In this document: positions 15,704 through 54,924 of the stretch, one piece after another | Position numbering within the stretch: position 1 is the first letter of the stretch | Layout of the letters: each line of letters begins with the position of its first letter | Assembly: GCA_020718065.1 (NCBI GenBank) | Contig: DYDE01000006.1 | Span: forward strand, 1-54,924 | Length of the DNA: 54,924 bases | From: Marinifilum sp. | GTDB taxonomy: Bacteria > Bacteroidota > Bacteroidia > Bacteroidales > CG2-30-32-10 | Reading direction: 5' to 3' | Program-made: the position numbers and the translations under genes | The notes under the pieces: generated by a model | Database searches by the model: none | What the model was told of the DNA's origin: nothing | The model's input: only the letters and a program-made list of their open reading frames with translations

Positions 15704-15914
15704 TTATACTGCAAACGGGATAAATTTGAACATAATTGGTATATGGAATAAATGTATAAAGGAGTAAAGGTATAAAGGAGTAGAGGTATAAAGGAGTATA
15801 TGTATAAAGGAGTAGAGGTATAAAGGAGTGAAGGTATAAAGTTATAGGGTCAATCTTATACCTTTATACCCTATACCTTTAAATTACTTAATTTTATTCC
15901 TGCGCAAAGTATAA
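15704..15914. repeat. 8/16-bp tandem repeat element with inverted arm and weak terminal inverted repeats (MITE-like)
   Basis: gtataaaggagtagag-type unit x5.5 (15754-15841); inverted tatacctt-type x3 (~15857-15880); ttatact...agtataa ends. Confidence 0.7.
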
Positions 15915-35129: not shown

Positions 35130-35516
35130 TTTGATTTGTTATTCAGCTTTGTTTTAAAATAAATTAATAATTTCTTTATTATTTAGAAGTACAAACCAAA
35201 GTTCCATTATGTTTTCGATTTTTGCAAGAAAAACTTTATTTTTTATGGTTTGCTAAAGCTTTTTATTGTTTATAATGATATGTGAAATCAATAATGTTCC
35301 AAGCAGCATTATTTATGCCGTTTAGTGAGACGATTGTTATTTAAAATAAATGTTGTTTAATAGAATTTAATACAATATGATATAAATACTGTGAAAAATA
35401 AGCATAATCACTTAATTGTTTTTTTTATCATTAATGTATTTTTGTATATATAGGTGAGTTCCATTTTTACCCAAATGCAAAAGAGAATTTAATATGTTTT
35501 TTATAATTTAAGGTTT

Positions 35517-44484: not shown

Positions 44485-45588
44485 TTAGTGGTAGTGTTCT
44501 TTTGTTAAACCTTTTAAGTAGTCCATAAATTCATTACTCAACTGAAAAAGATTTTCCTCTTTAGCTGCTTTATTGTATAGACTATAAAATTCATATGGAT
44601 TATAGAAAGTTTTAAGCATTTCATTTTTATAACCTGCTTTTACAATATGGTTTGCCATGAAAAACCCAATAGGATGTCCATTAAATCTTACGATTTCTAA
44701 AATTTTATCTACCATTTCCTTTTCAGATATCTCTTCTTTAGCGTATTTTAAAATCACATTATGAAATCTTTCTAAATCTGCTTGAGCCTGATTATATAAA
44801 TTCACCCATATTTCAACCATTTCGGGTAATTCTCCAACTTCATCAAAATACTTCTCGTAACCTTCAGATTTATCAATCAGGTCTGCAATTCCTTCATTCT
44901 GAATTAAATCAATACAATGGTTTAAATCACTTTTGTAATTGAAATCATGATTTTCAAAATTTTCTCTATAATTATGAAAAAATTCATGGGCAAGAAAATT
45001 TATTCGTTGTTCTTCCGTTTTTTTATAAATTAAATTAAAGTCAACATATATTGCATCTTCATTATTCTTGCCATCAGCAATAAGGAAAAGAAAATAAAGG
45101 GGCTTAAATTTGGTAGTCGAATCTATTGTGATCCCAAGAAAAGAACTTAATCTTTGTTTTGTTTTTACGACTAAAGCATTAAAATCATAATTTTCTCTGA
45201 ATGATTTGATTGGTTCATAATTATTATTTATGTCAATATAATTTGTCAGGAGAAGCTTTTTGTTCATCAACATAGGATTTTTATTCATTTCTTCTTTTGT
45301 AATACTTAAAATGCTATCTTTTTCGGCTATTCTCCCATTACCAAAAACAATATTAATAGAATTCTTAATAATGTTTATCACAGTTTTGTCTTTTCTTTTT
45401 GCATATGTCTTGTAACAACTCGAACTGTCAAAATCTTTCCATTGCGCTGCAGAAATTTCATTTCCTTTTTTTAAAGTTGAAGTTACTTTAAAGAATTCAT
45501 CGACCGATGTTAAATCAACTGTTTGTGCAATTGAAATGTTAATACTTGAAAATAGTATTAATAAGCCTATTGAAATTTTTATTTTCAC
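44485..45588 (-). CDS. Secreted putative Zn-dependent protease (DUF5700-like)
   Basis: AHEFFH plus downstream NEGIAD gluzincin-like motif; signal peptide. Confidence 0.75.
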   Translation of the reverse strand: MKIKISIGLLILFSSINISIAQTVDLTSVDEFFKVTSTLKKGNEISAAQWKDFDSSSCYKTYAKRKDKTVINIIKNSINIVFGNGRIAEKDSILSITKEEMNKNPMLMNKKLLLTNYIDINNNYEPIKSFRENYDFNALVVKTKQRLSSFLGITIDSTTKFKPLYFLFLIADGKNNEDAIYVDFNLIYKKTEEQRINFLAHEFFHNYRENFENHDFNYKSDLNHCIDLIQNEGIADLIDKSEGYEKYFDEVGELPEMVEIWVNLYNQAQADLERFHNVILKYAKEEISEKEMVDKILEIVRFNGHPIGFFMANHIVKAGYKNEMLKTFYNPYEFYSLYNKAAKEENLFQLSNEFMDYLKGLTKEHYH

Positions 45589-45994
45589 TATTATCTTATA
45601 TTAGAAGACCATTTTTTTTAAGTAAAAGTAGATATGTTACAGCTAGTAATAACATTATCAAAAGCAATCAAAGCCAACCTAATTTGGCTGACTAACCTTA
45701 CTTTTAATAAATATTGTTTTCCCCACAAATTCCTCCATTTTCAAATTTCAATCAAATTTCAACTAAATTTCCACAAAAAACAAAAAAAACCGTTTGTTTT
45801 TTCTCTAAAATCATTTAAAATGCCCTCATCTAAACAAAGAGTTTTGTTTTTTATAAAAACCAAGCATTCATTAAGCAATTAATTTAAAGCATATTGCATC
45901 ACATATTCAAATAAAACTATTGCATCCTGAAAATAAAAAAGCTAAAATTTGAATCTTTTAACAAACTGTAAAGAAATTGAACGTCAATGTTTAG

Positions 45995-46620
45995 TCTGGT
46001 ATTTTTCCCAGAAAACATTTTGGCGTAAGAATTTGTTCTGGCATTTTGCCAGGAAGAATATTGACGTAAGAATTTGTTCTGGCGTTTCGCCAGGAAGAAT
46101 ATTGACGTACGAATTTGTTCTGGCATTTTGCCAGGAAGAATATTGACGTAAGAATTTGTTCTGGCGTTTCGCCAGGAAGAATATTGACGTACGAATTTGT
46201 TCTGGCATTTTGCCAGGAAGAATATTGACGTAAGAATTTGTTCTGGCATTTTGCCAGGAAGAATATTGACGTAAGAATTTGTTCCAGTGTTTCGCTGTGA
46301 AGAATTTTGACGTAGGATTTTATTCCAGCGTTTCGCTGTGAAGAATTTTGACGTAGGATTTTGTTCCAGCATTTCGCTGTGAAGAATATTGACGTAAGAT
46401 TTTGTTCCAGCATTTCGCTGTGAAGAATTTTGATGTAGGATTTTATTCCAGCGTTTCGCTGTGAAGAATATTGACGTAGGAATTTGTTCCAGCGTTTCAC
46501 TGTGAAGAATATTGATGCAAGAATTTGTTCCAGCGTTTCGCCGGGAAGAATTTTGGCGTGAGAATTTGTTCCGGCTTTTCGCCGGGAAACATTTTGGCGT
46601 AGAAATTTGTTCCGGCGTTT
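45995..46620. repeat. 41-bp tandem array, ~15 units, hairpin plus second dyad per unit
   Basis: Units begin 46036, 46077, 46118 ... 46569, 46610; consensus ttctggc(a/g)ttt(t/c)gccaggaagaatattgacgtaagaatttg. Confidence 0.95.
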
Positions 46621-46970
46621 TAAAAATAATTAATTCAGGTGCTTTAGTGAATAAGAAAATACTGCTAAGTTATATTTTAAGCAAAAAAATCAATTATTTT
46701 TCCTGAAAACTTCCTGATTCAATCGGTGAAATTGATCTTTTTTCAGTAGAAATGTTTCTTTTGTCCGTTATCTTCGATATTTTATTATTGTATGTTATGA
46801 TCGGTCATTTTTTATGAATGGAAGATTTCTTTTGTTTTTCAATTATTTATATTTCAAATTTGTTGAATTTGATTTTTTTTCATAAATCTCTTTATGCTAG
46901 AACATTTATTGATTGCTAAGAAATGCTTGCCTTACTATAAACGATAAATACTAAATAAAAATCAAACTAT

Positions 46971-48764
46971 ATGAAACGATTATGTTTATTACTAACTATT
47001 TGCCTTCCTCTTGTACTATGCGGACAAAATTCCGAAACTGTAATTGAAATTCAAGGTCGTATTTTAAACAAAGAAACAAAGGTACCTGTTTGTTATGCAA
47101 ATGTGTTCAACAAACATTCGCTAAAAGGAACCATTAGCAATACAGATGGGTATTTTAAAATTTCTTTGTTAAGCCCTAAAGATTCAATAGTAATTTCTTG
47201 TATTGGCTACGAAAAGCAGTTTATTGCCTATTCTAAAAAAGAAGACTTTTATAATATTTTACTTAATGAAAGTGTTCAGCTTTTACAGGAAGTTACTATC
47301 AGGGCTACTGATAATTCATACTTGTATGAATTGATTAGAGATTGTATCAGCAAATCAACAAATAAACTAACAAAGGCAAAGGTGTTTTATGAGTTGAAAA
47401 CATTTACCGATAATAAACAAATAGAAATGCTAGAAACATTTTACAATGCAGAGATAAATGGTTATAATCTGACTGCATTGGAAATGAAAGCTGGCAGATA
47501 TGCATTACAGGTATATCAAAACAGATTGTTTACATCGCAGAATACCTCAAGATCAATTTCTTTGCAAAATATCACAGACGAAAATCAGTTTTTTCCCATT
47601 AGTCCTTTTGAGTATAAAAAAAAGAAAATGAAAAAATACTTTATCTTGGAACTAGAGAAAAAATATAAAGATGATAACGCTGATTCAATATACGTGATCA
47701 ATTATTATCCAAGAAAGATGTCAGGAGCTTTTTTTACAGGCAAAATATGGATAAATCCTATAAAAAAACACATATTTAAAATAACCTTTAATTGCGAAAA
47801 CTGTAAAATATATCCTTTCCTGCCCTTATATGCAACAGATAGTTTTACTCAGGTCGATCTTTCTATCACTAAATCATTTAAAGAATTAAATGAAGAAATG
47901 GTATTTAACCACATCGATTTTAATTATAAAATTGCATATAAAAGCATTCGAACAAAGAAAGCAGGATATGCTGAAGATTCTGAGCTAAACTATAATATTA
48001 CTACCAACGCAGTATTGTATGCCTATGATTTTAAAAATCAATTTATACTGCCACATTTTGTGTTTGAAGATTATAGTACGCGCGATTACCTCAGAATTAA
48101 TGCAATGCCCTACAACGATTTTTTTTGGGAGAAAAATGATGAACTAAAGCTTCACGATGAGAATAATAGCAATAAGCAATACTTTAATGATAATAATTCA
48201 ATCAGTAATAAATCTATTTATTTAAGAAATTCTCCATTAACGGGTAAAAATTCAATTTTTGAAACCCTTTTTACTTATTGGTCTAAAAAAAGGATAGCGA
48301 TAAGAGATGTAATTGCAGATACGCTTAAAAGAAAATTTGAATTATATAGCGATGGAACAATTAATGAGAATTATTACAACCTGAGCGTTAAAATATTTAT
48401 GGATGTAAATTCTTACGCCGACTCTACTCAAATAATTACTGCTGCTGTTTTCGATCCTTACGAAACATACTATCATTTTCCGATTGATGATGTTGCTAAT
48501 TGCTTTATAAATATTTATTTCGATTTATATGAAATTGAAAGACGCAAATTTGAGAAGGAAATTTCTTCACCCGGCATAAGCAAAGCTGAAATACAAAAAA
48601 AATATAACGAAATGTCATTGCAGATTTCAAATCAAAAAAACAAATATTTAAATGAAGTGGAGAGGGGGAATAAAAAATCTGAAATGCTGAAATGGAATAA
48701 ATATGTGTTTGAGAATTTGGGGATTGATAATTTTGAATTGTTTAATCTGTACGGAAATAAGTGA
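46971..48764 (+). CDS. Carboxypeptidase-like regulatory domain (CarbopepD_reg_2) secreted protein
   Basis: GTISNTDGYF..ISCIGYE..LQEVTI N-terminal domain; signal peptide. Confidence 0.8.
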   Translation: MKRLCLLLTICLPLVLCGQNSETVIEIQGRILNKETKVPVCYANVFNKHSLKGTISNTDGYFKISLLSPKDSIVISCIGYEKQFIAYSKKEDFYNILLNESVQLLQEVTIRATDNSYLYELIRDCISKSTNKLTKAKVFYELKTFTDNKQIEMLETFYNAEINGYNLTALEMKAGRYALQVYQNRLFTSQNTSRSISLQNITDENQFFPISPFEYKKKKMKKYFILELEKKYKDDNADSIYVINYYPRKMSGAFFTGKIWINPIKKHIFKITFNCENCKIYPFLPLYATDSFTQVDLSITKSFKELNEEMVFNHIDFNYKIAYKSIRTKKAGYAEDSELNYNITTNAVLYAYDFKNQFILPHFVFEDYSTRDYLRINAMPYNDFFWEKNDELKLHDENNSNKQYFNDNNSISNKSIYLRNSPLTGKNSIFETLFTYWSKKRIAIRDVIADTLKRKFELYSDGTINENYYNLSVKIFMDVNSYADSTQIITAAVFDPYETYYHFPIDDVANCFINIYFDLYEIERRKFEKEISSPGISKAEIQKKYNEMSLQISNQKNKYLNEVERGNKKSEMLKWNKYVFENLGIDNFELFNLYGNK

Positions 48765-51151: not shown

Positions 51152-51251
51152 TTTTGGAGTTTCACCAGAAAGAATATTGATGTAAGAATTTGTTCTGGCA
51201 TTTCGCCAGAAAGAATATTGACGTAAGAATTTGTTCTGGTGTTTCGCCAGA
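51152..51251. repeat. Satellite of the 41-bp repeat (2.5 units)
   Basis: Units at 51152, 51193, 51234; same orientation and sequence as the 45995-46620 array. Confidence 0.9.
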
Positions 51252-53625: not shown

Positions 53626-54924
53626 GCAAAACCACCAACCGCAACTTTTTGAGCATATAATAAATTTAGTTCATATTTTGAAGGCAAGTACCAATCGCCA
53701 TAAGTCACGCCACCAACAGTTACTGAATAATCGGCACAAACTTTTGCTGCAAAATTGCCAGGTTGGTTATCTGCCATTTGGGTAGCTATTATTATAGCTG
53801 TATTCATTGCACCTGCATACAATCCGTCTCCGGTTGTACCTGTATATCTATTCCTGGTATTGTACCATTGTATACCTCCACTTTGGTCAGTTGTAGCTGC
53901 TATTAATCCGTGTTGCCCTGTGGCATCTAACCAAAATATAATACCACCTTGGTAGTTTTGACCAATAGTAAGAGTTGTTGCTCCTGTTACATTTACCACA
54001 TAAGGGCTTGCAGTTGTTCCACTTCCTGTTATATTTATATTAGTTCCGGAATTTATTTTGGTCTCGGAGCCATCAGTAGTTGGTTTATTGCTTAAGTCGT
54101 TGTAGTTGCCACTGGTTGCAATGGTTGCAAATGTTGGTTTTTCTGTTACATCAGTCCATGATGGAACCCAAGATATTGGGCGATATAAACCTGCATGATT
54201 ACCCCAGCCATAAGTGGTATTCCAATTGGTAATATTTGTTGCGCTTATTCCATTAGCAGGATGAGCTGTAAAGATAGGGTCTGTTTCTGTAAAACTTGTT
54301 AAATATCCAGCAGCAGCATGATTTCCCCAACTATAAGCAGTGTTCCAGTTAGAAATATTTGTAGCACTAATTCCGTTAGCAGGCGATGCTTCAAAGAGGG
54401 GATCAGTTTCTGTATAACTAGTCAAGTATCCTGCTGAAGCATGATTACCCCATCCATATGCTGTATTCCAATTGGCAATATTTAAGGTGGGCAGGTTGGT
54501 TAAATTATTATAATCTGCGGTTTCAGCAGTTTTGGCATTCAGCGAATAAGGTACCGATAGCAATTGATTTGTTCCTGTGATGGTATAATTGGTTCCTCCA
54601 GTTGGGTCGGTTTCTGTTTTAATAAAATAGGGACCGTTTACCCAATTAATTGTAGAAAATCCTGCACCTCCGCCAATTTCAATACCTACCAAACCATTGG
54701 CATTGGTTGTTGGGGTTTGGGTTTCGGAATAGACTTCTGTTCCTGTAGCAGAACCTTGCAGTATGCTAATCTTCATCCCTACACTATGTGAAACAACCAA
54801 AGCATTGCTACTATTGCGTATTACTGCCTGGTAGCTCATTTTTTGCGGACTTTGCGCCTGGGTAGGTGAAAGGTAAAAGGCAAAAGGTAAAAGTAATATA
54901 GCAAGGATCAATCTCAATTGGGTC
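53496..54924 (-). CDS. Secreted fibre-like protein with C-terminal DUF1566/Lcl (CLec-fold) domain; likely DGR target; 5' end cut by the window edge
   Basis: Same N-module as the neighbour; IGQNYQGGIIF..GQHGLIAA; DWYLPSKYELNLLY; YWSSSE; VRAVRAF. Confidence 0.85.
   Translation of the reverse strand, partial: TQLRLILAILLLPFAFYLSPTQAQSPQKMSYQAVIRNSSNALVVSHSVGMKISILQGSATGTEVYSETQTPTTNANGLVGIEIGGGAGFSTINWVNGPYFIKTETDPTGGTNYTITGTNQLLSVPYSLNAKTAETADYNNLTNLPTLNIANWNTAYGWGNHASAGYLTSYTETDPLFEASPANGISATNISNWNTAYSWGNHAAAGYLTSFTETDPIFTAHPANGISATNITNWNTTYGWGNHAGLYRPISWVPSWTDVTEKPTFATIATSGNYNDLSNKPTTDGSETKINSGTNINITGSGTTASPYVVNVTGATTLTIGQNYQGGIIFWLDATGQHGLIAATTDQSGGIQWYNTRNRYTGTTGDGLYAGAMNTAIIIATQMADNQPGNFAAKVCADYSVTVGGVTYGDWYLPSKYELNLLYAQKVAVGGFANVYYWSSSEYNDNDAWVWNFGSGGQSLYLKATTFRVRAVRAF
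54535..54924. repeat. 390-bp exact direct repeat, copy 2
   Basis: Identical to 52998-53387; runs off the window end. Confidence 0.95.

Follow-up and report, generated by a model that had tools for sequence, protein, structure and literature searches.

The stretch of DNA analysed here, in the following the window, comprises 54,924 nucleotides (positions 1 to 54,924 of contig DYDE01000006.1, assembly GCA_020718065.1) of Marinifilum sp., an uncultured, AT-rich groundwater Bacteroidales bacterium whose assembly consists of 206 contigs and is 90% complete. Between 45990 and 46620 it carries, head to tail, 15 units of 41 bp and a final partial unit, with 0 indels and 0 spacers. Tandem Repeats Finder (TRF) calls this array at 46020-46620 (period 41, 14.7 copies, 89% matches, 0% indels, score 698) and, when the register is cut from 45990 and the columns of the unit are numbered 1-41 in that register, successive units are spaced by exactly 41 throughout. 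An earlier interpretation made from the letters of this DNA, the sequence-only reading, had described about 15 exact-period units without unique spacers, which both TRF and register cutting bear out.

Upstream of the array, on the minus strand, lies a gene for a DUF5700 putative zinc peptidase (44485..45588; Pfam PF18958, E 2.6e-45), which is transcribed away from it, and downstream, on the plus strand, a gene whose 597-aa product bears a CarboxypepD_reg-like domain at its N-terminus (46971..48764; PF13715, E 3.8e-14) begins 350 bp past its end. The absence of an adjacent cas, par or REP-associated tyrosine transposase (RAYT, Y1) gene, where REP stands for repetitive extragenic palindrome, had been observed correctly, and a CRISPR array is ruled out by these neighbours and by the absence of spacers. 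Two minus-strand open reading frames (ORFs) span the array, one of 169 aa (45991..46500) and one of 151 aa (45917-46372); since 3 does not divide 41, both of them read the unit in all three frames. For the 169-aa frame no homologue was found at E<=0.001 in a search that covered proteins of 92-296 residues only, and the ORFs which resemble the two are those across sister arrays alone. The unit is non-coding and the overlapping frames are by-products, as had been proposed.

Each unit contains a dyad able to form a hairpin, columns 6-13 opposite columns 17-24 around a 3-nt loop. Unit 1 (45990..46030, plus strand) is degenerate, with 26/41 matches to the template, and resembles the half-unit which opens other arrays of the genome after a leader (..TTCCCAGA[G/A]AAC ATTTTGGCGTAAGA). 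The fourteen full units that follow on the plus strand (units 2-15, 46031..46604), delimited by TRF, register cutting and pair counts, fall into blocks. The stems of units 2-7 read CTGGCA..TGCCAG or CTGGCG..CGCCAG with the loop TTT, the variants following one another as A, G, A, G, A, A, and units 2-5 are an 82-bp dimer present twice. Units 8-13 have the stem CCAG(C/T)(G/A)..C(G/A)CTGT, as a block CCAGCG-TTT-CGCTGT, and this variant CCAGCG..CGCTGT is window-specific, found nowhere else in the genome; their outer pair 8-22 is a C/T mismatch, which leaves a stem of 5 pairs instead of 6. Units 14 and 15 carry the stems CCAGCG..CGCCGG and CCGGCT..CGCCGG. The block-wise series of stems given in the sequence-only reading thus stands, except that the first unit is degenerate and that units 8-13 form five pairs. 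The array ends with the partial unit (columns 1-18), followed by about 25 nt of proximal tail (together 46605..46647, plus strand; blastn against contig C90 and flank alignment), a junction common to the arrays of the window and of contigs C90, C102, C8 and C196. In the blastn comparison of C90 with the window locus, similarity to the full element stops at window position 46647.

A genome-wide profile search for the unit, of the kind the sequence-only reading had suggested, located it at seven loci, two of them in the window and the others on contigs C90 (16 units), C102 (15), C196 (9), C8 (2) and C167 (1). The second copy in the window is a solo mini-array of 2.2 units on the plus strand (51153..51250; TRF 51160-51251, period 41, and nhmmer profile matches), in which inspection of the sequence and a scan for nearby terminal repeats found no leader, tail or terminal repeat. 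Contig C124, which opens with the last partial unit and tail, probably represents an eighth locus. Over the seven loci the copy number ranges from 1 to 16, with 61 units in total, and 54 of 54 within-array spacings equal 41. The arrays are polar: units at their 5' end carry the stem CTGGGAAATTCCCAG and those at their 3' end CTGGCGTTTCGCCAG, and in full elements stems are of the GGGAAATTCCC type at the 5' end and of the GGCGTTTCGCC type at the 3' end. All loci are intergenic, with unrelated neighbour genes and no consistent orientation of the array relative to them, and an all-against-all blastp comparison of the ORFs within 5 kb of the seven loci revealed no shared neighbour gene; apart from the by-product ORFs, just a few secreted-looking proteins matched one another weakly.

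What the arrays outside the window do share is a vehicle. Pairwise blastn of the 3-kb flanks between loci, by which leader and tail were defined, delineates a common leader of up to about 380 bp (C90, C8) and a common tail of about 210 bp; in the C196 copy these are reduced to the outermost 48 and 32 bp, which directly border its array. The element ends are inverted repeats of 13-15 bp, on the left GAGGTTGTTTAAA(A)T and on the right its complement ..TTTAAACAACCTC, which bound the array elements of C196 (497 bp) and, with mismatches, of C90 (1218 bp); in the C8 element the left terminal repeat is present and the right one degenerate. The same terminal repeats bound four short MITEs (miniature inverted-repeat transposable elements) of 193-341 bp as well as a 915-bp insertion sequence (IS) at C132:18561-19475, an intact copy with a single ORF for a 254-aa transposase with DUF4096 and DDE_Tnp_1 domains (PF13340, 4.3e-21; PF01609, 7.1e-21), that is, of the IS4/IS5 type. 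The array elements have no transposase of their own, and their sole internal ORFs are the frame-shifting by-products across the repeats. Identical 3-bp flanks (TTA/TAA) surround five of the eight complete elements, namely the IS, the array elements of C196 and C8 and the short MITEs of C80 and C109, while the flanks of C90, C57 and C84 differ by one base. The ends of these elements are therefore the ends of the resident 915-bp IS, and 3-bp TTA/TAA duplications flank them. The size of the IS, its GAG.. ends and a 3-bp TNA duplication would presumably place it in the IS1031 group of the IS5 family. Two other genera of the family possess the same IS, with 92-95% protein identity, the same ends and TNA-type flanks, which suggests either recent exchange or strong conservation.

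The tail of the full elements consists of a proximal part of about 28 nt and a segment of about 190 bp which ends in the right terminal repeat. Since the tail from about position 29 on is homologous to the short MITEs of the genome, the array element looks composite, built of a left end with leader, the array, 28 nt and a short MITE with a decayed left end. A derivation of the unit block from the terminal repeat was considered and rejected, the 7/13 bases shared by eye not being counted as evidence. Far from both arrays, at window positions 35285-35311, 27 nt align with positions 258-284 of the C90 leader at 92.6% identity (blastn E 6.8e-4).

Taken as a family, these elements display the features of a MITE with tandem repeats, namely ends that match an IS, a target duplication, small size without a transposase, a variable number of repeats, scattered intergenic copies and a narrow host range; the window copy itself lacks the IS-matching terminal repeats. 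We consider it likely that the array of the window is the minisatellite core of a lineage-restricted, non-autonomous IS5-family element, a MITE of the kind of MITEPgRS and BrickBuilt of Porphyromonas gingivalis. The IS transposase would have moved such elements into unrelated intergenic sites, and the window copy would descend from one such insertion, because the canonical half-unit at its start has been retained, as have the closing partial unit and the proximal tail. As an old or truncated insertion it would since have lost, or let decay, its leader, distal tail and terminal repeats, and duplication of units in place could then have produced the 82-bp dimers and the six-unit block specific to the window. 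This identity was not considered in the sequence-only reading, of which the non-coding nature of the array and the preservation of pairing were supported.

In MITEPgRS (MITE464) a tandem Repeat C of up to 14 copies lies between IS5-type ends (Naito et al., 2008; PMC2575886), and this repeat is 41 nt long (Klein et al., 2015; PMC4596501). Like MITEPgRS as there described, the present family is a non-autonomous Bacteroidales element with the ends of a resident IS5-family IS, contains a variable internal head-to-tail repeat (up to 14 units there, up to 16 here) and amounts to about 10-20 copies, some of them partial, in one species group. In contrast, the terminal repeats are GAGACTGTTGCA there (PMC4596501, Table 2) and GAGGTTGTTTAAA here. 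The core of MITEPgRS has repetitive flanks, Repeats A and B; that of the present element has a unique leader, and its tail comes from a short MITE. The bacterium concerned here, moreover, is uncultured, AT-rich and from groundwater. BrickBuilt is an intergenic, species-restricted and transcribed element with a 23-nt minisatellite, a leader, a tail and IS5-like ends (PMC4596501). The present elements share with it a spacer-free minisatellite with a non-repetitive leader and tail and short IS5-like inverted ends, always in intergenic position, and also the occurrence of copies with both flanks, one or neither, including repeat-only copies as in the window (PMC4596501). Further likenesses to the element as it is described are a narrow host range, the lack of an Rfam match and repeats predicted to form stem-loops. 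They differ from BrickBuilt as described in the unit, which is 23 nt there and 41 nt here, in the target duplications, which are irregular there and regular 3-bp TTA/TAA here, and in the promoter activity and transcripts that have been demonstrated there. Covariation in the repeat stem is not among the BrickBuilt features reported in the consulted sections of PMC4596501.

A third comparison concerns a different phylum and a different sequence. The BOX elements of Streptococcus pneumoniae are dispersed and intergenic, with a middle module of about 45 nt present in a variable number of tandem copies between two different end modules, are predicted to fold stably and are thought to be mobilised in trans; like them, the present family is a modular intergenic element with a variable tandem core. 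Separately, an order-level relative with a 2.3-Mb genome contains 112 exact copies of a 12-nt terminal repeat of the MITEPgRS/ISPg4 type, mostly paired 163 bp apart as 175-bp MITEs, some of which have an internal 118-bp duplication; one region of that genome also has short 23-bp and 21-bp arrays, and the 9 regions examined contain no 41-nt array.

The claim of the sequence-only reading that the stem stays paired while both of its sides change was followed over 57 units from the whole genome, 52 of them distinct (edge units W_1, W2_1, W2_3 and C90_16 were dropped), and it is borne out. Standard pairs occupy 90.9% of 416 cells as compared with 81.0 +/- 1.0 in column shuffles and with 37.0-57.7% after a shift of the 3' partner by 1-3 columns. 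Two-sided changes occur at four of the eight pairs (9-21, 10-20, 12-18 and 13-17) and amount to 53 cells, against 24.1 +/- 3.2 in shuffles (0/500), and RNAalifold predicts the five inner pairs. Shuffling within arrays gives 190.7 +/- 5.6 Watson-Crick cells where 238 of 285 are observed (0/5000). In a tree-aware null, in which the parsimony changes of each column were re-placed on random branches of a FastTree tree of the units, 267.5 +/- 27.3 Watson-Crick cells stand against 359 of 456 observed (0/2000) and 18.6 +/- 10.5 two-sided cells against 55 (8/2000); the covariation, which according to the sequence-only reading might not outlast a model of the duplication history, thus persists in this crude version of one. 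Statistically it is shown that pairing of the 5-8-bp stem has been maintained via two-sided changes, so that the folded hairpin has mattered. The stem may be kept up by selection, by preferential duplication of units that fold well or by hairpin-templated correction; in quasi-palindromes, hairpin-templated mutation can give rise to compensatory changes without selection.

The signal nevertheless goes back to a few events, and it is here that a neutral satellite, with the hairpin an accident of the founder and the compensation a by-product of a few block duplications, finds its arguments. The A-T state of pair 10-20 is restricted to one block of the window, the 12-18 swap belongs to a single multi-base switch between the stem types (columns 12, 14, 15 and 18), haplotype blocks of adjacent columns rank above most stem pairs in mutual information, and the 4 pairs that show any two-sided change do not exceed the count of either null. 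Recurrence is seen only for pairs 9-21 and 13-17. Yet the excess of paired and two-sided cells over shuffled columns, shuffling inside arrays, slid partners and the tree-aware null, and the presence of the C-G state of pair 9-21 in five arrays on both stem types, with columns 9 and 21 as mutual best partners, make such purely neutral drift the least probable of the accounts weighed here, hardly to be credited.

The second imperfect dyad reported by the sequence-only reading does exist, centred on ACGT at column 35.5, that is, 20.5 columns from the hairpin centre at column 15. A dyad at the half-period is, however, to be expected because the sequence is periodic and the whole unit, a quasi-palindrome, is itself dyadic: its outer pairs are the hairpin arms of adjacent units, and its inner pairs show fixed mismatches (G/A at 33-38, A/G at 25-5') and 0 two-sided changes, so that this dyad is largely a consequence of periodicity. 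Much more conserved than the stem is a nearly invariant block of 19 nt, columns 31-8 (TTGRCGTARGAWTTTGTTC). One may read this contrast, a block at columns 31-8 held nearly invariant while the stem drifts, as the trace of a protein which binds the 19-nt block, the 15-bp dyad or both every 41 bp, about four helical turns, in an iteron, centromere-like or nucleoid-organising array. The strict 41-bp phase without an indel in 61 units at 7 loci would agree with this, as would the array periods of 21, 42 and 63 bp elsewhere in the genome, which suggest a physical ruler. But unit-wise duplication alone also yields an exact phase, the stem arms vary too widely (CTGGGA, CTGGCG and CCAGCG) for a sequence-specific dimer to accept them, the second dyad has its fixed mismatches and no two-sided changes, and no candidate binder is adjacent at any locus, the neighbours being unrelated; we regard phased binding as decidedly improbable.

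Whether the hairpin is kept as DNA or as RNA bears on a further alternative, a functional multi-hairpin RNA of the plus strand (a sponge or a small-RNA precursor), whose stem would be selected as RNA structure and whose 19-nt block would serve as docking or processing site, the MITE being the vehicle only. The maintained pairing suits it, and so does the fold of a 164-nt RNA, which is much better for the plus than for the minus strand (-64.3 vs -41.7 kcal/mol; z -6.8 vs -5.4), although a G+T-rich strand folds better from composition alone. Outside the stem, A<->G variation opposite an invariant T preserves plus-strand G-U pairs, a pattern that the conserved block of columns 31-8 describes just as well; within the stem, mismatches of the plus strand are A-C/C-A in 24 cells and G-T/T-G in 15, the opposite of an RNA signature, and because the stem mismatches are without strand bias, RNA is not favoured over DNA for the stem. 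In an aquifer metatranscriptome of another study there are contigs with 0 differences to the window-specific units (46234-46559), which in themselves show neither transcription nor strand; such contigs cannot prove RNA, its strand or its ends, since RNA libraries can contain DNA. No contig of the RNA library covers 45000-45956 or 46653-47600, which is not used as evidence of array-only transcription. A joint 46173>46225 carries 10 foreign letters and most likely comes from a sister array. BrickBuilt is transcribed and carries promoters (PMC4596501).

At the present locus a promoter scan detected no exact match to the consensus TAnnTTTG in 45113-47076 and only weak sigma-70-type matches inside the units (9/12), the terminator scan returned 0 terminator-like sites, and the orientation to neighbouring genes varies among loci. 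A permissive search of 45500-47000 against Rfam 15 gave 6 matches, all far below threshold, the best of them with 28 bits to a plant microRNA model whose gathering score is 180. On balance we hold an RNA function of this kind to be unlikely.

The absence of a strand bias would suit a DNA hairpin that is nicked, together with an upstream GTAA/GTAG, by a Y1 transposase of the RAYT type and copied as single-stranded DNA, in which case the IS5 ends would be incidental. REPs are short, species-specific, intergenic palindromic units that occur in clusters and whose hairpin matters as DNA; within a cluster their orientation alternates, and they are linked to a Y1 transposase whose gene the same REP flanks. 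The genome does encode at least three intact Y1_Tnp proteins, and head-to-tail hairpin arrays lie on either side of two of their genes, those on C189 and C166, so RAYT-type systems that rely on tandem hairpin arrays may exist here. However, none of the 8 contigs with Y1_Tnp matches carries a 41-bp locus, the unit profile has no match on C66, C166 and C189, the contigs of the intact Y1 genes, and the arrays stand directly between IS5-type ends with 3-bp duplications. All units run in one direction, unlike those of bacterial interspersed mosaic elements (BIMEs), and assignment to the REP/BIME elements with RAYT was rejected, no Y1 gene being flanked by the 41-bp unit. A Y1 substrate therefore appears very improbable to us. 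With no Rfam match, Y1 genes that carry other repeats and no strand bias, the functions offered in the sequence-only reading (a processed non-coding RNA, a REP/BIME-like nuclease substrate or a phased binding array) stay hypothetical.

The two Y1 loci are observations in their own right. At C189:9015-10053 an intact Y1_Tnp gene (IS200/RAYT type) has on both sides head-to-tail hairpin arrays with a period of 66 bp (GCCCTGAAAGGGC), and at C166:14073-14929 another intact Y1_Tnp gene is flanked on both sides by such arrays with a period of 51 bp (GCCTCTACGAGGC); both look like RAYTs with tandem rather than inverted REP-type arrays.

Several points speak against the origin in a MITE proposed above. 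Profiles of the leader and of the tail have no match in the window at E<=1, matches resembling the terminal repeat occur in the flanks of the window array at chance rate, and no target duplication is recognisable there; because leader, terminal repeats and target duplication are lacking, the MITE origin of the window copy, as of the 2.2-unit copy at 51153, is drawn from family resemblance. An empty-site comparison met no orthologous locus in the 5 relatives searched, with no match for the DUF5700 neighbour and domain-level matches only for the other neighbour. Among the array-bearing elements, only those of C196 and C8 have matching 3-bp flanks, C90 having GAA/TAA, and the assembly is fragmented and incomplete to the degree stated at the outset, with arrays breaking contigs (C124). 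Membership in a MITE leaves unexplained why the stem stays paired and why the 19-nt block is more conserved still, the tree-aware null is crude in that its tree derives from just 41 columns, the stem columns included, and the RNA-library contigs identical to window-specific units leave a role as RNA open.

With these points weighed, we retain the minisatellite core of a MITE as the reading of the array and take it for selfish DNA prone to form structure, whose effects on the two flanking genes are incidental at most. A variant of the same history, in which the units have been exapted from the MITE as a transcribed repeat-RNA gene or a single-stranded DNA module, with a stem selected for its structure, the 19-nt block as docking or processing site and solo arrays kept for their use after the loss of their transposition ends, seems unlikely to us; if true, the exapted array may connect with the preference of this genome for periods of about 21, 42 and 63 bp. 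As a MITE-borne minisatellite the array extends a small class of bacterial MITEs which, to our knowledge, has so far been represented in Porphyromonas only, by MITEPgRS and BrickBuilt, and the literature searched brought up no other bacterial example of this design. It adds as host an uncultured groundwater Bacteroidales, with the parent IS, the 3-bp duplication and several stages of decay in one genome. It also provides a clean case of two-sided stem changes in a minisatellite, which bears on the use of covariation as evidence of function in repeated DNA, accounts for spurious ORFs and contig breaks in annotation, and sets this family of arrays, whose vehicle is known, apart from the many unexplained arrays of 21, 42 and 63 bp.

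Outside this genome, the 41-bp unit was found in none of 40 relatives (1 of the same genus at 75% completeness, 11 of the same family and 28 of the same order). A degenerate 22-nt pattern of it has one match in public genome contigs, one in metagenome contigs and none in viral contigs; both matches are single copies of near-identical sequence, apparently inside a gene, and are regarded as chance. Two sediment metagenomes contain diverged pieces of the element, hence relatives of it exist at other sites. As far as these searches reach, the unit is lineage-restricted, as are BrickBuilt and MITEPgRS in the narrow host range ascribed to them in PMC4596501.

Within the genome the 41-bp family belongs to a rich repertoire of tandem repeats. 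Whole-genome TRF recorded 152 arrays (copy number 3 or more, period 10 or more), with periods of 21 (41 arrays), 42 (15), 63 (19), 84 (5), 105 (2) and 126 (1), besides 43 (4) and 14 (13); the 41/82/123 family and the four 43-bp arrays sit just off the 21-bp series. There is thus a strong ruler of about 21 bp across unrelated units, and neither the IS5-type MITE nor hairpins explain it. That the other arrays lie inside the same MITE was rejected, as 23 of the 152 have a match resembling the terminal repeat within 700 bp where about 17 are expected, with the exception of C108:4864-5170. At this site a different, 63-bp array of 3.5 copies comes at most 90 bp after a left terminal repeat of this IS type, which may be a second minisatellite-bearing MITE. 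Nor do arrays of about 42 bp carry hairpins as a rule, a perfect stem of at least 6 pairs being present in 5 of 21 as compared with 11% of shuffles.

Three further repeats lie in the window itself. An unrelated intergenic 42/84-bp array of 5.2 copies at 762-979 contains two palindromes, of the GTACGGAATTCCGTAC type and the ATACATGTGTAT type; at 15745-15881 a 16-bp unit, GGAGTAAAGGTATAAA, is repeated six times and followed by about three inverted 8-bp copies, TTATACCT; and at 54193-54483 a repeat with a 123-bp period (2.4 copies, 77% matches), which has no relation to the 41-bp unit, probably represents a protein module in several copies.

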